DNA of 37,633 nt, taken from a virus. Its lineage: Duplodnaviria > Heunggongvirae > Uroviricota > Caudoviricetes. The DNA is taken from the IMG/VR virus record IMGVR_UViG_2939177367_000002. One strand, 5' to 3'. Shown here piece after piece: positions 1 through 15,495 of this stretch. The position numbers and the translations under genes were made by a program. The stretch's first letter is position 1; every line of letters starts with the position of its first letter. The notes under the pieces were generated by a model. The model saw only the letters and a list, made by a program, of their open reading frames with translations, made no database searches and was not told the DNA's origin.

Positions 1-1053
1 TTATGGGGTAATGCCAACCGCTGCCGCCACTTTGTCGCCACTTGGCAGCGTTGCCAGAGGATTGAAACGGAGCGCCGTTTCTAGATGATCCGGTGCCAGA
101 TGTGCGTAACGCATAGTCATTTTTATATCGTGGTGTCCGAGAATTTTTTGTAAGGCCAGAATGTTTCCACCCGACATCATGAAGTGCGCCGCAAACGTAT
201 GGCGCAGAACGTGTGTGAGTTGACCGCGAGGGAGCACGATAGACGTTTTTTCCATCACGGATAAAAATTGAAAATAGCAGTCTGTGAAGAAATTGAACCC
301 ATCAAGCGCCATGATCTCTTCGTAAAGCTCTTTACTGATAGGGATGCTTCTGTTTTTCTTCCCCTTCGTTCTGACAAAGGTAATTCGGTATTTGGTCACC
401 TGTGAGCGGGTAAGATTTACGGCTTCACGCCAGCGTGCGCCTGTGCTTAAGCATATCTTAACTACCAGTGCCAGAATTGGGTCCTGACGTTTGCAATCAG
501 CCAGCAATTCAACAATCTGCTCATGGGTAAGCCATGCCATCTCTTTTTCTGCGATGGTGAATTTTCGCATGTTCTCCAGTGGGTTCGGATACGACCATTC
601 GCCCAGACGGGATAGTTCGCTAAAAACACTACTTAGATAGCTTTGCTCCAGGTTAATGGTGACCGGGCTTGCTCCTTTCTTCCATTTCTCGCTGAAGTAG
701 ATCTCGCCTGTCAGGCGTTTATCTCGATAGTGGGCAAACATTTTAGAGGTGAGATCGGTTGCAAGAGGATTGCCCAGAGCGTCAACCATCAACAGCAATT
801 TGTCATAGACATGCTGCCCAGCTGTCAGAGATTTACCATGTAGTTTGAACCATAGCTCAACCACGTCTTTCAGTGTTCGACGATCCACTGATTCACCCAG
901 CCAGGGCTTTGCTTCGGTTTCTTCCATCGTGTGGCGCTCAAAAGCCAGTGCTTCGCCTTTGGTAGCGAATTGTTTACGCACACGACGCCCACTTCGTCCG
1001 GCGGGGTAACATTCGCAAAGCCATTTCCCTGTGGTTAGTTTTCGTACTGCCAT
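1..1053 (-). CDS. int: Tyrosine integrase (P2/186-like), 350 aa; stop codon at window positions 1-3
   Basis: ATG at 1053 (reverse complement). C-terminal catalytic signature readable in translation: R in LSTGARWREA, H-x-x-R in HVLRHTFAAH, Tyr in MTMRYAHL. Sits at the prophage end next to the att repeat. Confidence 0.9.
   Translation of the reverse strand: MAVRKLTTGKWLCECYPAGRSGRRVRKQFATKGEALAFERHTMEETEAKPWLGESVDRRTLKDVVELWFKLHGKSLTAGQHVYDKLLLMVDALGNPLATDLTSKMFAHYRDKRLTGEIYFSEKWKKGASPVTINLEQSYLSSVFSELSRLGEWSYPNPLENMRKFTIAEKEMAWLTHEQIVELLADCKRQDPILALVVKICLSTGARWREAVNLTRSQVTKYRITFVRTKGKKNRSIPISKELYEEIMALDGFNFFTDCYFQFLSVMEKTSIVLPRGQLTHVLRHTFAAHFMMSGGNILALQKILGHHDIKMTMRYAHLAPDHLETALRFNPLATLPSGDKVAAAVGITP
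21..40. repeat. Putative attL core (CTGCCGCCACTTTGTCGCCA), left copy of a 20-bp direct repeat flanking the prophage
   Basis: 19/20 identity with 34781..34800 (CTGCCGCCAATTTGTCGCCA); the copies sit at the int and ogr ends. Lies inside the last codons of int. Confidence 0.6.
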
Positions 1054-2832: not shown

Positions 2833-3429
2833 TTAATTCGAGACTATTGTACTTCTTATACAAGCAACCACTTCAATATCAGAAAATGCACATTCAAAGC
2901 TATTCTCTGCTGTTGTAATTTTAATCATTCCTTTAGGAAGCCTTGTGATTTTTCGAATGGAATAGGTTCCGTCGATATTGATTAACCAGTTTCCATCAAG
3001 TACTTCAGAAAATTTTTGATCACAAATGTATGTGACGAGTCCATCCTGAACAACAATTGGTGATGAAAGGTTTGCAGGAAGAAATGATGAATCGAAGACA
3101 TATGAACCGTCTTCAATCATTTTGCCTGCGGCAAGGCGAAACTTAACAAGCTCTTCTGTAGCTGCTGTCAGCGAGCTTTGCTTAAGGCCTTGTCCGGTAG
3201 TTAACCATTTGAGGGAGGTTCCTGTTTCAAGAGCACATTGGATTATCCAGTCAGCAGGAAATGTATCCCGCAAATACCTGTTCGCTAGTGTGCTTTTTGA
3301 TACTTCCAAGTGATCAGCTAAAGCCTGTCGTGTCGTAAAGCCATAGGCTTCGACTAATCGCTCAATCGCAGCCTTACCACCTTTATTGGGATTTATTTTG
3401 ATCTCACTTGGGTACTTTGATGTTGACAT
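2833..3429 (-). CDS. cI: CI-type immunity repressor (phage 186 CI-like), 198 aa
   Basis: ATG at 3429. N-terminal helix-turn-helix-like segment (TTRQALADHLEVSKSTLANRYL). Position between int and a divergent Apl/CII-like operon matches the 186 switch region. Confidence 0.75.
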   Translation of the reverse strand: MSTSKYPSEIKINPNKGGKAAIERLVEAYGFTTRQALADHLEVSKSTLANRYLRDTFPADWIIQCALETGTSLKWLTTGQGLKQSSLTAATEELVKFRLAAGKMIEDGSYVFDSSFLPANLSSPIVVQDGLVTYICDQKFSEVLDGNWLINIDGTYSIRKITRLPKGMIKITTAENSFECAFSDIEVVACIRSTIVSN

Positions 3430-5579: not shown

Positions 5580-6433
5580 GCACCATCCTGAAATGGGCAG
5601 GAAATAAAACCGCCATAATGTCCGAACTGAAAAAGCATCTTCCTGCTGGCCCGCGACTGGTTGAACCTTTCGCGGGTTCCTGTGCAGTGATGATGGAGAC
5701 GGATTACCCCAGCTATCTTGTTGCGGATATTAATCCTGATTTAATCAACCTCTATAAAAAGGTTGCTGCTGATTGTGAGGCGTTTATATCTCGTGCCAGA
5801 GCTTTATTTGAGGAAGCAAACAGGGAGGTGGCTTATTACAACATAAGGCAGGAGTTTAATTACTCCACTGAAATTACTGATTTCATGAAAGCGGTATATT
5901 TCCTGTATCTCAATCGTCACGGTTACCGTGGTTTATGTCGCTATAACAAGAGCGGGCATTTCAACATTCCCTACGGTAATTATAAAAATCCGTATTTCCC
6001 TGAAAAAGAAATTCGCGCATTTGCAGAGAAAGCCCAGCGGGCAACGTTTATCTGCGCCAGCTTTGATGAAACGCTGGCGATGTTGAAGGTGGGGGATGTG
6101 GTGTATTGCGATCCGCCTTATGACGGTACGTTTTCCGGCTATCACACTGATGGTTTCACTGAAGATGATCAGTATCACCTGGCATCCATTCTTGAACATC
6201 GGTCATCAGAAGGACATCCGGTCATTGTTTCTAACAGTGACACATCCCTGATCCGTTCGTTGTATCGCAATTTCACCCACCACTACATCAAAGCAAAACG
6301 CAGCATCGGTGTGGCAGCTGGCGAGGGTAAATCAGCAACAGAAATCATTGCTGTTTCCGGGCCGCGCTGCTGGGTGGGATTTGATTATTCGCGTGGCGTG
6401 GACAGTTCTGCCGTGTACGGAGTACGTGCATGA
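5576..6433 (+). CDS. DNA N6-adenine methyltransferase (Dam-like, D12 class), 285 aa
   Basis: ATG at 5576 with GGAGG ribosome-binding site. SAM-binding-like segment [11 protein letters not shown] and catalytic DPPY motif (VYCDPPYDG) visible in translation. No nuclease partner adjacent. Confidence 0.85.
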
Positions 6434-8844
6434 GTCATGCCGATATGAACAACTGCTGCGGCTTTAACGAGTCTGCCGCAGCATTCTCATGGAACAGCCC
6501 GAAAAAGGCCATTAACCCTTATCTGGACCCGGCGGAAGTTGCGCCGGTTTCTGCGCTTTCAAACCTGATCACTCTGTACGCTGCCGATAACGAGCAGGAA
6601 CAACTGCGCCGCGAGGCACTGAGTGATCAGGTCTGGGAGCGTTATTTCTTTAATGAATCCCGTGATCCTGTCCAGCGCGAAATGGAGCAGGATAAGCTAA
6701 TTAGCCGGGCAAAGCTGGCGCATGAGCAGCAGCGTTTTAATCCGGACATGGTCATTCTGGCGGATGTCAACGCCCAGCCTTCCCATATCAGCAAGCCGCT
6801 GATGCAACGTATTGAATACTTCAGCAGCCTGGGCAGGCCAAAGGCTTATTCCCGCTATTTACGTGAGACGATTAAGCCATGTCTGGAACGACTGGAGCAT
6901 GTACGCGACAGTCAGCTATCTGCATCTTTTCGCTTTATGGCAAGCCATGAAGGGCTGGACGGCCTGCTGATCTTGCCTGAAATGAGTCAGGATCAGGTGA
7001 AACGCCTGTCCACCCTGGTAGCTGCGCATATGAGTATGTGCCTTGATGCAGCTTGTGGTGATTTGTATGCCACCGATGACGTTAAGCCAGAAGAAATCCG
7101 CAAGACATGGGAAAGGGTGGCAGCAGAAACCCTGCGACTGGATGTCATCCCACCTGCGTTTGAGCAACTCCGCCGGAAAAGAAACCGCCGTAAACCCGTG
7201 CCCTATGAACTCATTCCGGGTTCGCTGGCGCGTATGTTGTGCGCCGACTGGTGGTATCGGAAATTATGGAAGATGCGTTGCGAATGGCGGGAAGAGCAGT
7301 TGCGCGCTGTCTGCCTGGTCAGCAAAAAAGCATCTCCCTATGTCAGCTATGAAGCTGTGATGCATAAACGTGAGCAGCGCCGTAAGTCGCTGGAGTTTTT
7401 TCGTTCTCATGAACTGGTGAACGAAGATGGCGACACGCTGGATATGGAAGACGTGGTAAACGCCAGCAGCAGCAACCCTGCGCATCGCCGCAATGAGATG
7501 ATGGCCTGTGTTAAAGGTCTGGAGCTTATCGCGGAAATGCGCGGTGACTGCGCCGTTTTCTACACCATCACCTGTCCGTCACGTTTCCATTCCACGCTAA
7601 ATAACGGCAGGCCCAACCCGACTTGGACAAATGCGACGGTAAGACAAAGCAGTGATTATCTGGTCGGCATGTTTGCTGCATTTCGTAAGGCGATGTACAA
7701 AGCCGGATTGCGCTGGTATGGCGTGCGGGTGGCTGAGCCGCATCATGACGGTACAGTTCACTGGCACCTGTTGTGTTTTATGCGCAAAAAAGATCGCCGC
7801 GCCATTACTGCTTTGTTGCGTAAGTTTGCCATTCGTGAAGACCGTGAGGAGCTGGGTAATAACACAGGACCACGCTTTAAGTCTGAGCTGATAAACCCGC
7901 GCAAAGGTACGCCAACAAGCTACATCGCGAAATACATCAGTAAGAACATTGACGGGCGTGGTCTGGCTGGCGAGATCAGCAAGGAAACGGGTAAATCCCT
8001 GCGTGATAACGCTGAATACGTTAATGCCTGGGCGTCTCTTCATCGTGTTCAGCAATTCCGCTTCTTTGGCATTCCGGGGCGTCAGGCTTACCGTGAACTG
8101 CGATTGCTGGCTGGTCAGGCGGCAAGGCAACAGGGGGACAAAAAAGCAGGTGCGGCGGTACTGGATAACCCACGCCTTGATGCCATCCTGGCTGCTGCTG
8201 ATGCTGGTTGTTTTGCCACCTACATCATGAAGCAGGGCGGCGTGCTGGTTCCCCGTAAATATCACCTCATCAGAACCGCTTATGAAATCAACGAAGAGCC
8301 GACCGCCTATGGCGATCACGGCATTCGTATTTATGGCATCTGGTCACCCATTGCAGAGGGCAAGATCTGCACTCATGCAGTGAAGTGGAAAATGGTTCGT
8401 AAAGCCGTTGACGTTCAGGAGGCGGCAGCCGACCAGGGCGCTTGCGCCCCTTGGACTCGTGGCAATAACTGTCCCCTTGCTGAAAATTTGTACCAACAAG
8501 GGAAAGACAAATCAGCTGATGGGGATACCAGAACGGATATTACCCGCATGGATGACAAGGAGTTGCACGATTACCTGCACAGTATGAACAAAAAAGAGCG
8601 CCGGGAACTGGCTGCAAGGTTACGCCTGGTGAAACCGAAACGGCGTAAAGACTACAAACAGCGAATTACAGACCATCAGCGACAGCAGCTCGTCTATGAA
8701 CTGAAGTCCAGAGGATTTGATGGCAGCGAGAAAGAGGTCGATTTACTCCTTCGCGGCGGCAGTATTCCGTCAGGAGCAGGCCTGCGTATCTTCTATCGGA
8801 ACCAGCGTTTGCAGGAAGATGATAAGTGGCGAAACCTGTATTAA
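6430..8844 (+). CDS. A: Rolling-circle replication initiator endonuclease (P2 gpA-like), 804 aa
   Basis: ATG at 6430 overlapping the upstream stop. Size, position and a paired-tyrosine segment ([11 protein letters not shown]) match the P2 A family. Confidence 0.9.
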
Positions 8845-8936
8845 TTACGCGGGTTAACAATTCGTGCTCTTAATAATACCAGGCATATCAGGCTGATGAA
8901 CGTAAAAAAACGTTTTACATCAGTAAGATTATTATA

Positions 8937-8956
8937 TACTGTAAATATAAACAGTG
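8937..8956. promoter_or_regulatory. LexA (SOS) box TACTGTAAATATAAACAGTG
   Basis: CTG-N10-CAG with AT-rich centre, close to the E. coli consensus TACTGTATATATATACAGTA; about 40 bp upstream of the 8997 start codon. Confidence 0.6.
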
Positions 8957-8996
8957 GTTATATTTACAGTATTGCTTTGGTGTCATAGGAGGAAAG

Positions 8997-9185
8997 ATGC
9001 AGGACTATTTTTTGGAGTCTTTGAAGCTCCAGCGCATTGATTTTTTTCTTAAGCTTGTAGCGGCTAGTGAGTGTAGTGATGAAGAGAAGGGGCTGGCTTT
9101 GCAGTGGGTTTCTGAACTAACAGATGAACTCATGGCAAAAATCAGAACCCACGAATACAACCGCTCAATGGATGTCATCAGTTGA
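8997..9185 (+). CDS. Small SOS-controlled protein, 62 aa; possibly the N-terminal module of a Tum-like antirepressor
   Basis: ATG at 8997 with AGGAGG ribosome-binding site directly downstream of the LexA box; followed 11 nt later by the DinI-like gene. Confidence 0.5.
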   Translation: MQDYFLESLKLQRIDFFLKLVAASECSDEEKGLALQWVSELTDELMAKIRTHEYNRSMDVIS

Positions 9186-9196
9186 GGTGACTTTTT

Positions 9197-9430
9197 ATGC
9201 GCATTGAAATAATGATCGATAAAGAGCAGAAGATTAGCCAGTCTACCCTGGACGCCCTTGAATCCGAGCTTTACCGCAATCTGCGTCCTCTGTATCCCAA
9301 AATGGTAATTCGTATCCGCAAAGGTAGCTCTAACGGTGTGGAACTGACCGGATTGCAACTGGACGAAGAAAGAAAACAAGTGATGAAAATTATGCAGAAG
9401 GTGTGGGAAGACGACAGCTGGCTGCATTAA
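9197..9430 (+). CDS. DinI-like protein, 77 aa
   Basis: ATG at 9197 with GAGGTGA ribosome-binding site. Translation MRIEIMIDK...IRIRKGSSNGVELTGL...VWEDDSWLH resembles the DinI family as I recall it. Confidence 0.7.
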   Translation: MRIEIMIDKEQKISQSTLDALESELYRNLRPLYPKMVIRIRKGSSNGVELTGLQLDEERKQVMKIMQKVWEDDSWLH

Positions 9431-9700
9431 GAAACGTTGCTGGCGTCTGAACTTGCTTCTGGCGTCAGCAAGGTTGAACAACGAGCTATGCGAGGCGTTA
9501 GTGTCAATTTGTTACCTTAACCACTATATATGCCAGGAAATTAACAGTTCTTAAGAAACAGCTTGCATGATCGAGCGCATTGAACTTAAGTTTAAGTAAC
9601 GCAATCAACAGATGATATTGTTGTCTAAATTTTAAAGATAATCTGTTGAGGTTGTAGGCGTCGGAGTGTAGACTTCCGCGCCATGTGAAAAGGGGGAGTT

Positions 9701-9916
9701 ATGTCAAGCATCGCCGCATTTAGCCTGGGTAACCCAGTTGAACGTCTGGCAAGGGTTCTTAAAGAGAACCAGGACAAACTCAATCTTAGTAAAGATGGTT
9801 TTGTGTCCGTAGACTTGTCTAACAAAAGAGCAATGGATGCCATCAAGGCACAGATGGATAAGCTTGAAGGCATCAAAACGAGCACTGTAAAAGAGAAAAC
9901 TAATAGAACCAGATAA
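9701..9916 (+). CDS. Hypothetical small soluble protein, 71 aa; first gene of a two-gene cargo operon
   Basis: ATG at 9701 with GGGGGAG upstream; its stop TAA overlaps the next ATG (TAATG at 9914..9918), implying translational coupling. Confidence 0.5.
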   Translation: MSSIAAFSLGNPVERLARVLKENQDKLNLSKDGFVSVDLSNKRAMDAIKAQMDKLEGIKTSTVKEKTNRTR

Positions 9917-10758
9917 TGGCAACATTACTTTTAGCAGTGATTTTGGTTAGTGGTTTTATTTATGTAAACCTATCACTTTCAACAAGATACCGATATAAGC
10001 GTTCCAACGGCTGGGACGCTTATTTTTTTGTGGCTGCCTGGGGTATCGTTTTTTTTCTCCTTGGCGGTTTTTTCACCTTTATTTTGAACGTCAGCGGAGG
10101 GTTTCGTTGGCTGGCTAATGCCTTGAATCTAACACCTGACAGTTTTAATGGCATGTTGTCTTCATCGAAAGACAAACTTCAAAGAATAAATGAAATCAAA
10201 CAGATAGCATGGGTTATGATTTCAATTGTCCTCGCTGCGATTTCAGGTTTTGGAAATAAGTTACGCACATCACGTGGAGATCGTCGCTGGGATGCCTTAG
10301 CTAAAGCTGTGGGTAATAACGCTTTCGAATCATTACTCATGGAAGCGTCCGCAAGACAGTTTCCGATCATAGCAACTCTGTCGTCTCGCAAAATCTATGT
10401 TGGTCTTGTTACTTGTCCGGCGTTAGAAAACGGGCTTTCAGAGCACCTTGAACTTCTCCCGATGTTAAGCGGATATCGGGATAAAGATGATCTAACGATT
10501 AGTATCACGACTAACTATCACCAACATTATCTTGATAGTGGTGTGATAAGTGGAATGTCTCGGCTTAATATCGAAGATTTCCGTGTGCTCATACCAAAAG
10601 ATGAGGTTGAAACAATTTCGTTTTTTGATACTGAGACATATAACAAATTTAAAGAAAATGAAGCCAGGGATAGAAAGAACTGTCGAAAGATTGATAGTAA
10701 AAGTGCATCTTCGCGCAGCAAGCGTGCAGCAGATGCTGAGTCAAATGATCGTGCATGA
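9916..10758 (+). CDS. Hypothetical membrane protein, 280 aa, three predicted transmembrane helices plus a ~170-aa charged C-terminal domain
   Basis: Hydrophobic segments LLLAVILVSGFIYVNL, YFFVAAWGIVFFLLGGFFTFIL and IAWVMISIVLAAISGFG; no family recognised. Confidence 0.6.
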   Translation: MATLLLAVILVSGFIYVNLSLSTRYRYKRSNGWDAYFFVAAWGIVFFLLGGFFTFILNVSGGFRWLANALNLTPDSFNGMLSSSKDKLQRINEIKQIAWVMISIVLAAISGFGNKLRTSRGDRRWDALAKAVGNNAFESLLMEASARQFPIIATLSSRKIYVGLVTCPALENGLSEHLELLPMLSGYRDKDDLTISITTNYHQHYLDSGVISGMSRLNIEDFRVLIPKDEVETISFFDTETYNKFKENEARDRKNCRKIDSKSASSRSKRAADAESNDRA

Positions 10759-10805
10759 CTATGCTGCATGAGATCGCATGATCGTTTGAGGATCGTTTTT
10801 GCTAG

Positions 10806-10830
10806 GGCCCGCCAGAACTGGCGGGCTTTC
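10806..10830 (+). terminator. Weak hairpin GGCCCGCC-AGAACT-GGCGGGC followed by TTTC
   Basis: Read directly; lies after the 280-aa gene and before the AT-rich promoter region of the 557-aa gene. Confidence 0.3.
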
Positions 10831-10995
10831 GCGTAGATCATGCACCTGCATGAAAACTACTACATAAAGCGGGCAGGCGTGGCGGGGATACGAGCGCGCG
10901 CAACAGTGTAACAATCTGGATCTAATGTGATATAGTTACTGTAAATATTATTAACTATTCTTATATGCATTATTAAATATTTTAATGGAGCGTTT

Positions 10996-12669
10996 ATGGA
11001 AAAATATCAAGATGAGGAATATGTAGATGATTTAACTGAGCGTGTTTTTCTCATTAAGCAACAACTGGAAGCGGGAAAACTAAAAATAGCTCATCATCTT
11101 GTAGAAGGTTTTATTGAAAGTTTTAAAAGAATAAGGCTGCGACAGGATGGTAAAGTTGACCCTTCTACTGTTGATGGCAGAATAAGGGCTATGGGAGCAG
11201 CGGTTAATCACTTTTTAGAAAGAGAAGATATAAAAAACAAATACTCTATTCAGGACTTGCAAAGTTCTTACTTTAATATTCTTTTTAGTAATTTTGGCGA
11301 GTTGTTTTATCTGATGAAAAAAACTAATGCAACGCCACATAAAGCATCAAGTTTTTTTTCTCAACAAGAAGAATATGTTAAGCAAATAGAAGATATTTTT
11401 CCTGAGTTATATAATCAGGTAATAGAGTTTTGGCAGGTAACATCCGATATTGGTGTAATACATTTGCAGGATGGTTCTCAGTTTAAAGCTAATTTTTCTG
11501 GTGACTTATTTCCTGCATTTGATGAGAATGCTGTCTCTATTGCAGGGTTGTATGTTGATACTATTTCACTTCCATGTCCTATATTAAGAGTCGGTCGTCT
11601 CTATGAAAAGTCAGATAAGGCTGAGTTTACAAGGATACTTCTGAAGCATGTCCTAACATGTATGACATATAAAGAAGTAGCGCTTGAAGATATAGAGCCA
11701 GCAATAGTATTAATTTTGCCGGATAGAAGAGATTTTGAAACTGAGAGCAAAAAAAATTTGATGAGTTTTTGTGAGCCTTATGCTCTGACTCATGCGCAAT
11801 ATCTCTATGATCGACGGTTCGAAAGCTACGATGAATTTCGAGATTTTAGTTATTCGATGAATGATATTGATGCTGTTCTTAAAAATATTAAGAGAGCAGA
11901 TAGACTTATTTTTGATACAGCATGGGGGCTAAATCCAAAAACTCAATTAGAAAAACTACTATCTGATAAAAAAAGAATATCACGTAATGTTGTTGGTGAT
12001 CATGCTGGAATGGAGGTTTTCCTTTCCTGCATTGGAAGAATGCCGCAAGCCTATTCAGCAAAATGTAATGCACAAGAACTTGGTAGTACTCCATATATAA
12101 ATGCAGACACATCTTGGCTCTATTATACTTGGCTTATTGAGTACGAATCTCTTAATTTTGATGTCAATGATATTGAACTAAAAAATTTGCATATGGTTCA
12201 TGCGTTATCTGCTGGTATGCAAGATGGTTTTTCATGGTTAGGAAATGTACCGGTCAATAAAATAATTGAGTTGAGACGTAACAAATTGATGGAGGATGTA
12301 AGATCCATCTTATCAAATGGTGTTGACTCTTTAATCAATTCTTCGGCAGAGAGCTTTTCGAGGACAACGCAAAAAGTAATTGATAATGTAGACCGGGCTT
12401 TTATTGAACATCAAAGGATTCTTGCAAAAGCCCAAAAAGAGAAATTGAGAATTTACGGACTAGATGTCCTACCATGTATCGCAAATGGTGCTATAGCAAT
12501 TGCTGGAGCGCTGACTGGCAATACTACTTTAACGGCGTTAAGTGCAGGCCTTGGAGTAATAGGTATTCCGAGTATTAGTGATATCAAATCTAAATTTAAG
12601 CAGAGGCAAGAGAAGCTTGATGCCTATCAACGTTCTGTTACAGGTATACTCTTTAGCCATAAATCTTAA
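10996..12669 (+). CDS. Hypothetical protein, 557 aa, very AT-rich, with a Gly/Ala-rich hydrophobic segment near the C-terminus; no recognisable family
   Basis: ATG at 10996 with GGAG upstream and an AT-rich promoter-like leader. Long uninterrupted frame with protein-like composition; C-terminal GAIAIAGALTG...ALSAGLGVIGIP; terminator hairpin downstream. Confidence 0.7.
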   Translation: MEKYQDEEYVDDLTERVFLIKQQLEAGKLKIAHHLVEGFIESFKRIRLRQDGKVDPSTVDGRIRAMGAAVNHFLEREDIKNKYSIQDLQSSYFNILFSNFGELFYLMKKTNATPHKASSFFSQQEEYVKQIEDIFPELYNQVIEFWQVTSDIGVIHLQDGSQFKANFSGDLFPAFDENAVSIAGLYVDTISLPCPILRVGRLYEKSDKAEFTRILLKHVLTCMTYKEVALEDIEPAIVLILPDRRDFETESKKNLMSFCEPYALTHAQYLYDRRFESYDEFRDFSYSMNDIDAVLKNIKRADRLIFDTAWGLNPKTQLEKLLSDKKRISRNVVGDHAGMEVFLSCIGRMPQAYSAKCNAQELGSTPYINADTSWLYYTWLIEYESLNFDVNDIELKNLHMVHALSAGMQDGFSWLGNVPVNKIIELRRNKLMEDVRSILSNGVDSLINSSAESFSRTTQKVIDNVDRAFIEHQRILAKAQKEKLRIYGLDVLPCIANGAIAIAGALTGNTTLTALSAGLGVIGIPSISDIKSKFKQRQEKLDAYQRSVTGILFSHKS

Positions 12670-12674
12670 TGTAG

Positions 12675-12704
12675 AGGGCCGAGGTATTCGGCCCTTAGTT
12701 TTAT
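12675..12704. terminator. Hairpin AGGGCCG-N7-CGGCCCT with flanking T-rich tract, between the 557-aa gene and portal gene Q
   Basis: Read directly; could terminate the plus-strand cargo gene and/or the convergent Q transcript. Confidence 0.4.
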
Positions 12705-13729
12705 ATGAAACTGTATGGCATGAATTTTATTATGTCATCTTTGAGCCATTTATTGAGTTCTTCTATTCTGTTTTGTAGCGGTATCAATTCATTACGCATA
12801 AAAACCTTACTAGCCTTCTCCACATCCCCAAATCCCCCAACATTATTCGGCATTATCCCCATCATTTGCGGCGGCACTCGGTGTGCTGCCATCATGTCAT
12901 CCCGGCTCACGTTCTTGATATTCAAAAATTCATCCTTTGCCGCGACTTCTGACAGAGGAATAATCTGAAGCCCGTCTTTTTTGCCGTTAGGCGAGTACAT
13001 AAACAGGTTGCGAAAGTTGCCTGGACCTTTGGCGCTTTTCATCGCGTTACGGAGATTGTTTACATCTTCCTGGTTCTGCGCGGCGTCGGTCATGTACATG
13101 ATGAAGCCTGCATGGCTGCCGTTGATGTAATACTTACGGCGGAACAGCGTGGCGGACTCGTTGAGCAGGGCTGACGGAATGGCAGAAAGATAACCGGGCA
13201 GGCCGTAGATCTCCTGGTTGATATCTGGTTCCATCAGATGAAAAATGCTGCCTTTCGTGAACTGATACGGTTGCGTGGTCATACCGTATTGCACAAACCA
13301 GTAGGTATCCAGGTCTAACCCGCGTCGGGTATATTTTGCCAGGGCAGGCTCAAGAGCGATAATTTCACCGAACCGGTTCGTGCGTTTCTCCAGATAGGCG
13401 TTACCAAATACCAGATAGTCCTGCACAAAACGTGAAAAAGCCTGCTGGCTGAGCAGCGGGTGAGGGATGTAGGTGCTGGTCAGAATGTTGCACTTTACTG
13501 CAATCGGGGAACTATGATGAACGGCAGCGCGGAAGGTGCGCGCCAGTCCGTCAAAGCTGACGGGCGGCTCATACCAGCGGTCCATCTGTACGCATTCCAC
13601 ATAATCCAGCAGTTCTCGGCGGTCCAGAACAGGAACGGGATCGCCGAAGCTGAATGCTTCGGCTGTAGTTTGACTTTTAAGCTGGATCTGTTTCGTCGCC
13701 GCAGCGCGGTTCTTCTTACTCTTTCCCAT
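12701..13729 (-). CDS. Q: Portal protein (P2 gpQ-like), about 342 aa
   Basis: ATG at 13727..13729 (reverse) overlapping the gpP stop (TGATG). Size and position next to the terminase match P2. The last ~25 codons are encoded by AT-rich DNA. Confidence 0.85.
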   Translation of the reverse strand: MGKSKKNRAAATKQIQLKSQTTAEAFSFGDPVPVLDRRELLDYVECVQMDRWYEPPVSFDGLARTFRAAVHHSSPIAVKCNILTSTYIPHPLLSQQAFSRFVQDYLVFGNAYLEKRTNRFGEIIALEPALAKYTRRGLDLDTYWFVQYGMTTQPYQFTKGSIFHLMEPDINQEIYGLPGYLSAIPSALLNESATLFRRKYYINGSHAGFIMYMTDAAQNQEDVNNLRNAMKSAKGPGNFRNLFMYSPNGKKDGLQIIPLSEVAAKDEFLNIKNVSRDDMMAAHRVPPQMMGIMPNNVGGFGDVEKASKVFMRNELIPLQNRIEELNKWLKDDIIKFMPYSFI

Positions 13730-15495
13730 CAAAAAAACTCCACAATATTGCTGGTATTGGCGGATTCGCCCTGCAGCGGTTCGTTAAACAGTGCGTGCAT
13801 CGTTGCCCAGGCCAGATCGGCGTGGCTGGCTTCTTCGCTGCGGCTGGCTTCATAGGTCGGGCGGTTGCCACTGGCGGTGGTGGCGCGACGGATTGCCATA
13901 AAGGACTGCGCTATGTCGGTGTGTCCGGCGTCAAACTCCAGACGGCGGTGGCTGATAATGTCGTAGGCCTTGAGTACCAGGGCGTTTTTAACGTTGGGGT
14001 TGTAGACAAACTCCCGGACGGCAGGAAAAAACGCTTTCACGTTCTCGTAAACCCCGTGACCAACGCCGGTTGAGTCGATACCGATATAGGTCACGTTGTA
14101 CTGTTCGGTCAGTTTTTTGATGGCGTCAGCCTGGGCGCGGAAGTCCATTCCGCGCCACTGGTGACGCTCAAGAATGCGGAACTTACCGCCCGGCACGGCT
14201 GGCGGCGCCACCACCACGCATCCGGCGCTGTCGCCGTTCTGCGTACCTTTCGCCGGGTCATATCCGATCCACACTTCGCGCCAGCCAAACGGGCGCAGGG
14301 CCAGTGCATGAAAGTCGGTCCAGACTTCCCAACTGTCCACCATGCACGCCTGCAGCTCGCTGAGTGGGAACACAGACGCGAGATCGTCCACGAACTCACA
14401 CATCAGCAGGTTCTGGTATTCGTCCGGGCTGTACTCCATGCGCAACTGGTCGAGGTCGAACAGGTTACAGCCGCCGCGCACCGCATCTTCCACAGTGACT
14501 ATCTGGCGGTACTGCCCGTCTGCGCACAGCAGGCCGGGGGCCAGATTGCTGTGGGACAGGTCGATGTCCACCTTATCGGCTTTGTTGCGCCCTCGGTTGA
14601 ACAGCGCACCGGACCAGAACGGATAAGCACTGTGTGTCAGGCTGGATGGCGTGGAAAAATAGGTTTGTCGCCATTTTTTGTGAATAGCCATACCGGAAGC
14701 CACTTTGCGCAGCTCCTGGAATTTCGGTATCCAGAAATATTCATCCAGATACAGGTTGCCGTGGTAACTCTGGGCCGTGCGGGCATTGGTGCCGAGGAAG
14801 TACAGCGTGGCCCCGTTAGGAAGCACCATCGGATCGCCTTTCAGCTCCACCTCCACTTCTTTGGCGAAGTCGATGATGTACTGCTTAAAGACGTGGGCCT
14901 GAGCCTTGCTGGCGGAAAGGAAAATCTGGTTACGCCCGGTTAGCAGGGCGTCAATCAGGGCTTCACGGGCAAAATAGAAGGTCGCGCCGATCTGGCGTGA
15001 CTTCAGCAGGTTGCGGATGCGGTTGGTTTTTCCGGCTTCCCACCAGTGGCGCTGGTAGTTGAACATGGAGGAATGGAAGATTTCTTCCAGCTTCTCAATC
15101 TGTTCATCGGTGAAAACGTTCTTTTCCGGCTGACGGCGCGGGCCTTTGTTGCGGTTGGCGACGTTAGGGTTTAAGTCGGCTTCGTTGCCGCCATTGTTAA
15201 ACTTGCCGATCCGCGCATGGCGCTCCGACTGGCGCGCCAGCAGGTCAATCTCTTTGAAATCTTTCCCTTCTTTGTGCTCCTTCATAATGAGCTGGCAGTA
15301 GCGTGCGGCGGTGGTGAGCTGCATCTGATCCAGCGGCCCATAGTCACCCCACTTGTCGCGTTTTTTCCAGCTGTGAACGGTTGCAACTTTCTCGCCCAGC
15401 ATTTCAGCAATGCGGGCTACGCGGTATCCCTGAAAGTACAGCAGCATGGCCTGCCGACGGGGATCGAGATCTGCGGGTGTCAGTGTGGTGTTCAT
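13729..15495 (-). CDS. P: Terminase large (ATPase) subunit (P2 gpP-like), 588 aa
   Basis: ATG at 15495 (reverse); size and divergent arrangement with the O-N-M-L operon as in P2. Confidence 0.9.
   Translation of the reverse strand: MNTTLTPADLDPRRQAMLLYFQGYRVARIAEMLGEKVATVHSWKKRDKWGDYGPLDQMQLTTAARYCQLIMKEHKEGKDFKEIDLLARQSERHARIGKFNNGGNEADLNPNVANRNKGPRRQPEKNVFTDEQIEKLEEIFHSSMFNYQRHWWEAGKTNRIRNLLKSRQIGATFYFAREALIDALLTGRNQIFLSASKAQAHVFKQYIIDFAKEVEVELKGDPMVLPNGATLYFLGTNARTAQSYHGNLYLDEYFWIPKFQELRKVASGMAIHKKWRQTYFSTPSSLTHSAYPFWSGALFNRGRNKADKVDIDLSHSNLAPGLLCADGQYRQIVTVEDAVRGGCNLFDLDQLRMEYSPDEYQNLLMCEFVDDLASVFPLSELQACMVDSWEVWTDFHALALRPFGWREVWIGYDPAKGTQNGDSAGCVVVAPPAVPGGKFRILERHQWRGMDFRAQADAIKKLTEQYNVTYIGIDSTGVGHGVYENVKAFFPAVREFVYNPNVKNALVLKAYDIISHRRLEFDAGHTDIAQSFMAIRRATTASGNRPTYEASRSEEASHADLAWATMHALFNEPLQGESANTSNIVEFF

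Follow-up and report, generated by a model that had tools for sequence, protein, structure and literature searches.

A small-protein gene overlapping the gene of a three-helix membrane protein with a predicted Sm-like domain forms a mobile cassette beside cos in P2-type prophages

P2-like phages possess a cos-proximal diversity hotspot in the interval between gpA and gpQ, the cargo of which includes old and tin in P2, retrons, PARIS-like systems and many further validated defense systems (PMC9122126). DUF4238, '3HP', DprA-PRTase and TIR+TM systems are found in it as well (Rousset et al. 2022, PMC9122126). Here, we describe a pair of genes from this interval of IMG/VR virus record IMGVR_UViG_2939177367_000002, a stretch of 37,633 nucleotides (the window) that comprises a complete P2-family prophage of the 186/Fels-2 type. 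Gene A encodes a protein of 71 amino acids (aa). Gene B overlaps it and encodes a 280-aa inner-membrane protein, in which three transmembrane (TM) helices are followed by a predicted cytoplasmic Sm-like domain and a basic tail of low complexity. Together, the two genes form an autonomous accessory cassette ('moron') of temperate phages that is horizontally mobile. We judge the chances about even that it acts as a phage-exclusion or abortive-infection module with toxin-antitoxin-like logic.

In its location, the pair resembles the known cargo of the hotspot. It lies between gpA and the portal gene Q, placed between dinI and cos, in a locus where variable cargo beside cos is swapped between near-identical prophages, and its occupancy varies among relatives. 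In sequence, however, it is unrelated to every validated system. In phage 186, the same position between a DinI-like gene and cos, likewise 3' of a promoter under LexA control, is taken by orf97, a single 243-aa gene with a downstream terminator of its own, t95b. Both proteins of the pair are listed in Table S5A of Rousset et al. 2022 (PMC9122126), where they are described only as 'hypothetical' with '2 TM'. Two diverged relatives appear in Table S5B of that study, #43 with 93 occurrences and #57 with 75 occurrences and a 78-aa VVGRG-type partner. They match the family profile in HHalign at 100% and 99.7%, respectively, and three diverged versions of the family share the same hotspot in Escherichia coli. 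Our literature searches for the accessions of the pair, its PHROG identifiers, membrane-anchored Sm-like defense proteins and 186 orf97 returned nothing relevant. The cassette is catalogued but uncharacterized, and its pairing rule, Sm-like domain and wider distribution are reported here for the first time, as is a terminator-like hairpin with a T7 tract inside gene B.

Other parallels lie outside the hotspot. The CBASS protein Cap15 is a membrane effector composed of TM helices and a beta-barrel. Gene B shares with such abortive-infection membrane effectors its N-terminal TM helices, a compact cytoplasmic beta-barrel, the lack of an enzyme domain and its occurrence in defense contexts, but no homology to Cap15-type effectors was found, the cassette contains no signal-producing enzyme, and the partner is a protein of 55-80 aa rather than a cyclase. 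Type II toxin-antitoxin (TA) operons likewise have a small upstream gene that overlaps a larger one, mobile carriage and, possibly, an excess of the upstream product. They differ in that the pair matches no TA family and that the putative toxin combines three TM helices with an Sm-like domain. In MscS, 286 aa accommodate three TM helices in N-out/C-in topology and, in the cytoplasm, an Sm-like beta domain. With about 280 aa, three TM helices, the same topology and the same type of cytoplasmic domain, gene B is like it in architecture only. Unlike MscS, it has two additional helices that separate TM3 from the barrel, and its small partner gene is obligatory. Membership in the MscS family was rejected, as there was no sequence similarity and MscS was not among the top structural matches. 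Finally, gene B differs from Sm, LSm and Hfq proteins and the related WYL ligand-sensor domains of defense regulators in being membrane-anchored and in matching no LSM/Hfq profile, and from the Sm/LSm/Hfq proteins also in its inserted beta3-beta4 region, which has an SGYRDKD motif and a 20-residue insertion.

The two genes were almost never found apart. Separate DNA searches detected both in 52 of 52 E. coli genomes, out of 5426 complete genomes searched. The 150 bp downstream of the pair (10751-10900) were present in 1274 of the same genomes, so that the pair occupies ~4% of P2-like prophages (52 of about 1270). All 53 placements of the cassette in E. coli were chromosomal and none was on a plasmid. 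The number of accessions in Table S5A is unequal for the two proteins (21 versus 8), and partner swapping was considered and rejected on the basis of the complete co-occurrence; the unequal counts probably reflect allelic accessions. To cover distant relatives, one genome per species was scanned, which yielded 80 loci in Enterobacterales, Aeromonas, Vibrio, Shewanella, Pseudomonas, Psychrobacter, Asticcacaulis, Novosphingobium, Acidobacteria and others. A same-strand open reading frame (ORF) of 54-115 aa ended within a few dozen bases of the start of the membrane gene in 77 of these 80 loci. The stop/start overlap of the two window genes had been the starting point of the original prediction, which proposed to look for the pair as a conserved two-gene cassette. 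The overlap was confirmed, and tight coupling proved to be a trait of the family: among 69 full-length loci, the spacer was zero or negative in 37 and 1-20 nucleotides (nt) long in 24 more (61 of 69 in total). None of the small partners had a TM segment.

The small partners are diverse. Twenty-seven of them are homologues of gene A detectable by hidden Markov model, with the core ...DGxVSLNLN...V..AI..Q..KL, and about 47 further ones fall into a group with the motif 'VVGRGTVxIDPxEV', a related Pseudomonas group and a Shewanella group. HHalign connected the Shewanella and enteric small proteins at 81% (E, 1e-5) and the two Pseudomonas-type groups at 99%. The identities of A and B are correlated (r, 0.82), and the type of small protein maps to the clade of B. 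As judged from these comparisons, A and B evolve as a unit, with the small gene diverging faster. A word-indexed search retrieved only 57 clusters of gene B relatives. By contrast, a gene B profile built from 27 members and run against 1.84 billion representatives matched 2910 at E <= 1e-3 and 2027 at E <= 1e-10, almost all of them 240-290 aa long and aligned end to end.

Within the pair, both genes match PHROG profiles over nearly their full length, gene A with an E value of 1.4e-36 (positions 1-66 of 66) and gene B with 8.8e-99 (positions 1-270 of 274). Compared with the copy in a Klebsiella phage, which has ~80% nucleotide identity, the ratio of nonsynonymous to synonymous changes (pN/pS) was 0.26 for gene A and 0.09 for gene B. 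Gene A and gene B are real genes under purifying selection. A GGAGG-type Shine-Dalgarno (SD) sequence precedes the small gene by 6-8 nt in all aligned cassettes, and no recognizable SD is found ahead of gene B, at the junction GAACCAGATAATGGCA (in its wider context ...CCAGATAATGGCA..., ATAATGG). Since gene B has no SD of its own, it is most likely translated by termination-reinitiation. The leader hairpin just upstream of the SD (Table 1) has a folding energy of -14.7 kcal/mol and a z score of -1.35, which is not significant alone. It is retained with sequence changes, reading GGAGTGTAGACTTCC here and GAAGTGTACACTTC in the Klebsiella phage.

The product of gene A is a soluble, basic protein (isoelectric point, 9.9) with no TM segment. 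In an AlphaFold2 (AF2) model, it consists of a helix at residues 12-22, a hairpin-like turn at the invariant D32-G33 and a helix at residues 42-58. The predicted local distance difference test (pLDDT) score of this model, 67, was too low for a meaningful fold search. Seven diverse small partners had no Pfam family even at E <= 10. For this reason we dropped an AbrB/SpoVT/MazE-like fold, which the 'VVGRGTVxIDPxEV' motif had brought to mind. Many database records name gene A homologues 'multidrug ABC transporter ATPase'. With a length of 71 aa this name cannot be right and represents a propagated misannotation.

Gene B carries near its 5' end a hairpin with a T7 tract, KRSNGWDAYFFV, about 80-115 nt into the gene, which was called by the terminator scan. 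The stem is identical at synonymous positions and the loop is variable in homologues down to about 38-46% protein identity, and the stem is kept in cassettes from three different prophage contexts. In the enteric-type clade, the folding energy of this segment gave z scores of -3.6 to -6.6 relative to 200 synonymous-codon randomizations per gene, of which zero or one reached the observed value. Across 13 non-identical sequences, 92% of the cells of the stem paired, as opposed to 30-49% with slid partners. Two pairs were compensatory, U-A to C-G in Erwinia and U.G to G-C in a metagenome-assembled genome of Aeromonas, and 4 of 500 shuffles reached the observed values. The element was present in 11 of 27 enteric-type genes and in 0 of 45 genes of other clades, and almost never occurred elsewhere in the gene. 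These patterns point to an attenuator of transcription that is specific to this clade or, possibly, to an element at the 3' end of an mRNA. If the hairpin is active, transcripts with a complete gene A and only the first ~38 codons of gene B would outnumber the full-length ones. Such a surplus would argue against the fixed stoichiometry that the overlap had been taken to imply, and would fit a small partner in excess.

The three N-terminal TM helices foreseen for gene B were recovered by hydropathy and by structure modeling. Kyte-Doolittle plots (19-residue windows, >= 1.5) delimited hydrophobic segments at residues 1-24, 32-63 and 91-116, and the AF2 model (mean pLDDT, 78) contained helices at 2-19, 33-60 and 87-118. 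Positive charges are concentrated in loop 1 (STRYRYKRSNGWD, four K/R) and in the stretch after TM3 (six K/R). By the positive-inside rule, this distribution orients the protein with its N-terminus outside and its last ~165 residues in the cytoplasm, in accord with the cytoplasmic domain proposed earlier. The modeled soluble domain has an N-terminal helix followed by bent beta-strands, as in Sm folds, and an insertion at residues 201-222. When it was compared with the full PDB by Foldseek, nearly all of the top 50 matches were Sm/LSm proteins, with TM-scores of up to 0.74. According to the model, the domain has the Sm/LSm/Hfq fold. A fold search of a viral structure library returned only uncharacterized proteins.

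Sequence profiles did not reveal this relationship. Pfam LSM/Hfq models gave no match to gene B at E <= 0.1 and none among 28 members of the family, no solved structure was related to gene B by sequence, and no enzyme domain was found in it. One acidobacterial member aligned in register with Pfam DUF6338 over 140 residues (E, 2e-4), with 21.3 bits against a gathering cutoff of 26.5; the gene B protein of the window and 27 other members had no match. On DUF6338, a single paper was found, a proteomics study in which a loosely analogous operon appears. In E. coli, one diverged copy of gene B carries the label 'DUF2207 domain-containing protein', for which Pfam scans gave no support.

An alignment of 75 diverse members, down to about 22% identity, defined the conserved surfaces of gene B. 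The S185-K190 motif was 100% conserved. Strictly invariant were Y161, P182, S185-G-Y-R-D-K190, L193, Y201 and G43, and R158, K159, G163, D191, F237, R29, G32 and Y36 were nearly so; R29, G32, Y36 and G43 were conserved in at least 91% of members. The periplasmic loop was the most variable part, with 42% gaps. Conservation is concentrated in the Sm-like domain (RK-Y-G ... P..SGYRDKD.L ... Y) and at the cytoplasmic ends of TM1 and TM2. As these surfaces are cytoplasmic, they suggest recognition of an intracellular ligand or partner and argue against a periplasmic block of DNA entry. The invariant Tyr, Arg and Lys residues are no more than suggestive of RNA or oligonucleotide binding.

The mobility of the cassette is evident from its carriers. 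In addition to the window, it occupies the P2-type right end in Klebsiella ST15-OXA48phi14.1 and Salmonella SEN4/5. It was also found between gpK-like and gpJ-like tail genes in a lambda-like Enterobacter prophage (locus 7775-8801), between a tail gene and the tape-measure gene in an Aeromonas prophage/siphophage (locus 7785-8771), at the repressor-side edge of a Shewanella P2-like prophage and in the lysogeny region of Pseudoalteromonas phage C5a. The two cassettes in late tail blocks, in Enterobacter and Aeromonas, have 230-350 nt of noncoding DNA upstream, and this site is an unusual one for accessory genes. A census of 37 diverse loci, covering the two closest ORFs on either side of the cassette, included integrases (4), portals (3), GPA (2) and terminases (2). 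The GC content of the pair is 41% versus 51% for the window. The 1.3-kb region used in the searches was 100% identical to that of E. coli 210221272. By eye, a segment GGTTGAACAACGAGC...GCGAGGCGTTAG (9470-9500) lies 5' of the pair here and 3' of orf97 in phage 186 (~2370-2410). Its placement suggests that the pair was inserted at a junction other than that of orf97 and that the slot has several recombination points.

On its 3' side, the cassette is bounded by cos. The original prediction placed a weak terminator at 10806..10830 and on this basis regarded the pair as a unit distinct from the 557-aa gene that follows. A hairpin does exist there (10804-10832), but it is strong rather than weak (-23 kcal/mol; z, -4.6), no more than three U come after it, and it was not called in the terminator scan. 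It is not an intrinsic terminator owned by the cassette, since it lies among conserved TGCATG repeats in a cos block that 1274 E. coli genomes share irrespective of their cargo and that is common to 186, Fels-2 and P4. The block (10751-10900) aligns with Fels-2, with the Klebsiella phage and with the right-hand end of phage 186, whose terminus ...CATAAAGTGGGCA falls on window positions 10863-10875. The bases that follow, GGCGTGGCGGGGATACGAG (10876-10894), equal the annotated 186 cohesive end GGCGTGGCGGGGAAAGCAT over the first 13 of its 19 positions. These alignments put the cos cut at 10875/10876. Phage 186 has a hairpin of different sequence at the same spot, and the P4 cos regions printed in Table S2A of Rousset et al. 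have one at the equivalent place. We also considered whether the cos hairpin is the 186 terminator t95b, and rejected this identity because, in the alignment, t95b is located 5' of the conserved cos block and nothing in the window corresponds to it.

It follows that packaging places the pair and the 557-aa gene at opposite ends of the genome, right and left, respectively, and that they are neighbors only in the circular or integrated form. Their occurrence is independent, too. In the Klebsiella phage, the pair is followed across cos by a SEFIR-domain gene; Table S5A of Rousset et al. lists the pair with SieB or other hypothetical proteins and the 557-aa protein without the pair; and SEFIR, SieB and KAP NTPase/PIN genes are found in the same hotspot of other phages. 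The proposed separation of the two therefore holds, on account of the intervening cos and their independent assortment and not of a terminator. The 557-aa gene has a very low GC content (35%), a terminator-like hairpin of its own (12674-12696) and no Pfam domain, and its product has a weak PADLOC match to DitB of the Aditi system (E, 7e-10; residues 195-452). It is probably a separate single-gene defense candidate.

The only recognizable promoter element upstream of the pair is a perfect LexA box. The annotation of phage 186 reads p95/LexA, tum, the partial terminator t95a, orf97, t95b and cos. Because the pair lies downstream of the LexA-box promoter in the slot of 186 orf97, it may be expressed at least partly by SOS-dependent read-through. 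TTTACA is found 17 nt upstream of TACTGT at the LexA box (8914-8954), which corresponds to the p95 SOS promoter of 186. Behind dinI, at the place of t95a in 186, there is a strong hairpin (9437-9471) that lacks a U-tract. An Rfam scan of 8800-11100 gave one chance miRNA match only.

How the cassette might act can be outlined from these features. As an exclusion or abortive-infection module, for which we see about as much reason to believe as to doubt, it would use B as a membrane effector that, once triggered, disturbs the integrity of the membrane. Rings of 6-7 members are the normal assemblies of Sm domains, and B therefore probably oligomerizes under the membrane through its Sm-like domain. 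This domain would serve as a sensor or regulatory site for a nucleic acid, a nucleotide or a protein, and A would be the cognate regulator of B, either a neutralizer or an adaptor. In the enteric-type clade, A may be in excess via truncation at the intragenic hairpin, about 110 nt into gene B. Such a role is supported by the conservation of the two genes as a unit, the hotspot location, the defense neighbors, the mobility, the intragenic hairpin and a TM plus beta-barrel architecture without an enzyme domain. The record of phage 186 states that orf97, in the same slot, blocks 186 infection when expressed from a plasmid. Defense genes found beside the cassette in the 37 loci encode a CBASS cyclase and NucC, AbiLi/AbiLii, SspH, PARIS AriA, GajA, MADS and PDC-S31, a census without matched background that is suggestive only.

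Several observations, including that limit of the census, weigh against a role in defense with TA-like logic. The remaining neighbors, in many distant loci, are ordinary chromosomal genes. PADLOC-DB v2.0 assigned 0 families to the two window proteins and to 28 diverse members, and the family motif is absent from the tables of tested systems of Rousset et al. (S2A and S2B). Pfam detected no antitoxin DNA-binding fold (ribbon-helix-helix [RHH], helix-turn-helix [HTH] or AbrB/SpoVT) in the small partners. The enteric and VVGRGT small proteins aligned in HHalign at a nonsignificant 9%, even though their hairpin motifs align. Nor did a dedicated promoter emerge: there was no sigma-70 consensus match between dinI and the pair (9431-9700), and promoter-like matches upstream of 74 cassettes were not enriched (19 versus 15.3 expected from shuffles). 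A bolder version, which we consider rather improbable, holds that the pair is a widespread, unrecognized two-component abortive-infection immune system composed of an Sm-like ring sensor, a small partner and an attenuator. In it, the membrane-anchored ring would sense phage nucleic acid or nucleotide via the invariant SGYRDK/Tyr pocket and convert this signal into membrane permeabilization, the fast-evolving small partner would act as a specific inhibitor or adaptor, and the attenuator would set a high partner-to-effector ratio.

We also weighed functions other than defense. The cassette could be a pure addiction module, with B as a membrane toxin and A as a labile antitoxin that stabilize their carrier and have no dedicated antiphage role. 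Its layout, in which a small upstream gene is tightly coupled to a larger downstream one as in canonical type II operons, its carriage on mobile elements and the possible excess of A transcripts via the intragenic element all agree with this idea. We nevertheless hold it to be unlikely, given that A has no RHH, HTH or AbrB-type domain, that neither protein matches known TA families and that the cassette prefers prophage accessory and defense hotspots over plasmids. Besides, many TA modules also act in abortive infection, so that addiction overlaps with the exclusion module favored above. Alternatively, the pair could serve the SOS or lytic program of the carrier phage itself, for example as an SOS-induced membrane factor in induction, DNA exit or entry, lysis timing or kin exclusion at the time of induction, by analogy with the SOS operon of phage 186. 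Its position downstream of the LexA-box promoter, the failure to detect a promoter belonging to the pair, the correspondence to orf97 in the p95 SOS transcript of 186 and its embedding in late tail operons of two siphophages are what such a role would predict. It is made doubtful by the low occupancy among E. coli P2-like prophages (52 of about 1270), which marks the pair as dispensable, by the presence of the cassette in unrelated phage types at unrelated positions and beside nonphage chromosomal genes, and by the other cargo that fills the same slot in sister phages. Homology of the membrane protein to a known lysis or superinfection-exclusion protein had been named at the outset as a finding that would refute the prediction, as had a failure of the pair to be conserved together in other genomes. 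The co-occurrence counts given above answer the latter, and for the former, Pfam, NCBIfam and PHROG gave no functional match of the pair to superinfection-exclusion (SieB) or lysis (holin) families.

A role in lysogenic conversion, in which B forms an MscS-like or other ring channel for ion or osmotic homeostasis or stress and A is its gating subunit, appears quite improbable, notwithstanding the parallel with MscS in architecture and size and the loci that have housekeeping neighbors only. The notion that gene A is spurious and the pairing an artifact of ORF calling can draw on the shortness of the gene, its misleading database name and the only moderately confident AF2 model. It is effectively refuted by the strong SD, the pN/pS of 0.26, the match to PHROG 9843 and the conserved small-ORF families found at the same position in 74 loci.

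The features of the cassette and of the surrounding prophage are collected in Table 1. Between the integrase and the CI repressor, the minus strand encodes a 558-aa protein (1136-2812) with DUF4041 and T5orf172/MUG113 (GIY-YIG-like) domains. Its position marks a third accessory locus of the prophage, and it is possibly another defense gene.

Table 1. Positions of the cassette, its elements and the prophage backbone in the window
Feature	Position	Strand	Remarks
Integrase	1-1053		
CI repressor	2833-3429		
CII/CP76 and Dam methylase genes			Between CI repressor and replication protein GPA in the listed order
Replication protein GPA	6430-8844		
LexA box	8939-8954	+	CTGTAAATATAAACAG, perfect; upstream of the 62-aa and dinI genes
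62-aa protein gene			Ahead of dinI in the listed order
DinI-like protein gene	9197-9430		
Leader hairpin, context only	9657-9682	+	Just 5' of the SD; kept in close relatives
Shine-Dalgarno of gene A	9690-9698	+	AAGGGGGAG, strong
Gene A, 71-aa small partner	9701-9916	+	ATG start; WP_000094764; PHROG 9843
TAATG stop/start overlap	9914-9918	+	TAA (9914-9916) and ATG (9916-9918) share one base
Gene B, 280-aa inner-membrane protein	9916-10758	+	ATG start; WP_021556032; PHROG 3630
Membrane region of gene B	9919-10269	+	TM1 2-19, cytoplasmic loop KRSNGWD, TM2 33-60, variable periplasmic loop 61-86, TM3 87-118
Intragenic terminator-like element	9995-10030	+	12-bp stem, 5-nt loop, T7; codons 27-39 of gene B
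Predicted cytoplasmic Sm-like (LSm/Hfq-fold) domain	10321-10644	+	Residues about 136-243
Invariant motif S185-G-Y-R-D-K190	10468-10485	+	Within P182-x-x-SGYRDKD-x-L193; family signature
cos region	10751-10900		Phage backbone; 3' boundary of the cassette, outside it; TGCATG repeats, hairpin, cut, cohesive end
cos hairpin	10804-10832		11-bp GC-rich stem
557-aa gene	10996-12669	+	
Portal	12701-13732	-	
Terminase	13729-15495	-	
Host ybjL-like and ybjM genes			Right edge of the window

Our results bear on the organization of P2-type prophages and on the annotation of their genes. cos splits the P2-type hotspot into two slots that assort independently, and the analysis corrects the propagated 'multidrug ABC transporter ATPase' misannotation of the small protein. 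Pfam, NCBIfam and PADLOC have no model for the gene B family, none of whose members scored above threshold in Pfam or NCBIfam, and three TM helices joined to an Sm-like domain are an architecture without prior description as a defense effector. If the immune function were true, prokaryotic immunity would gain in gene B its first membrane effector of the Sm/LSm fold. Sm and Hfq domains are classic RNA binders, so that such a protein would tie the sensing of RNA or nucleotides directly to the membrane. Should the cassette serve in defense or exclusion, it would add about 2900 clusters (50% identity) from several phyla to the prokaryotic immune repertoire.

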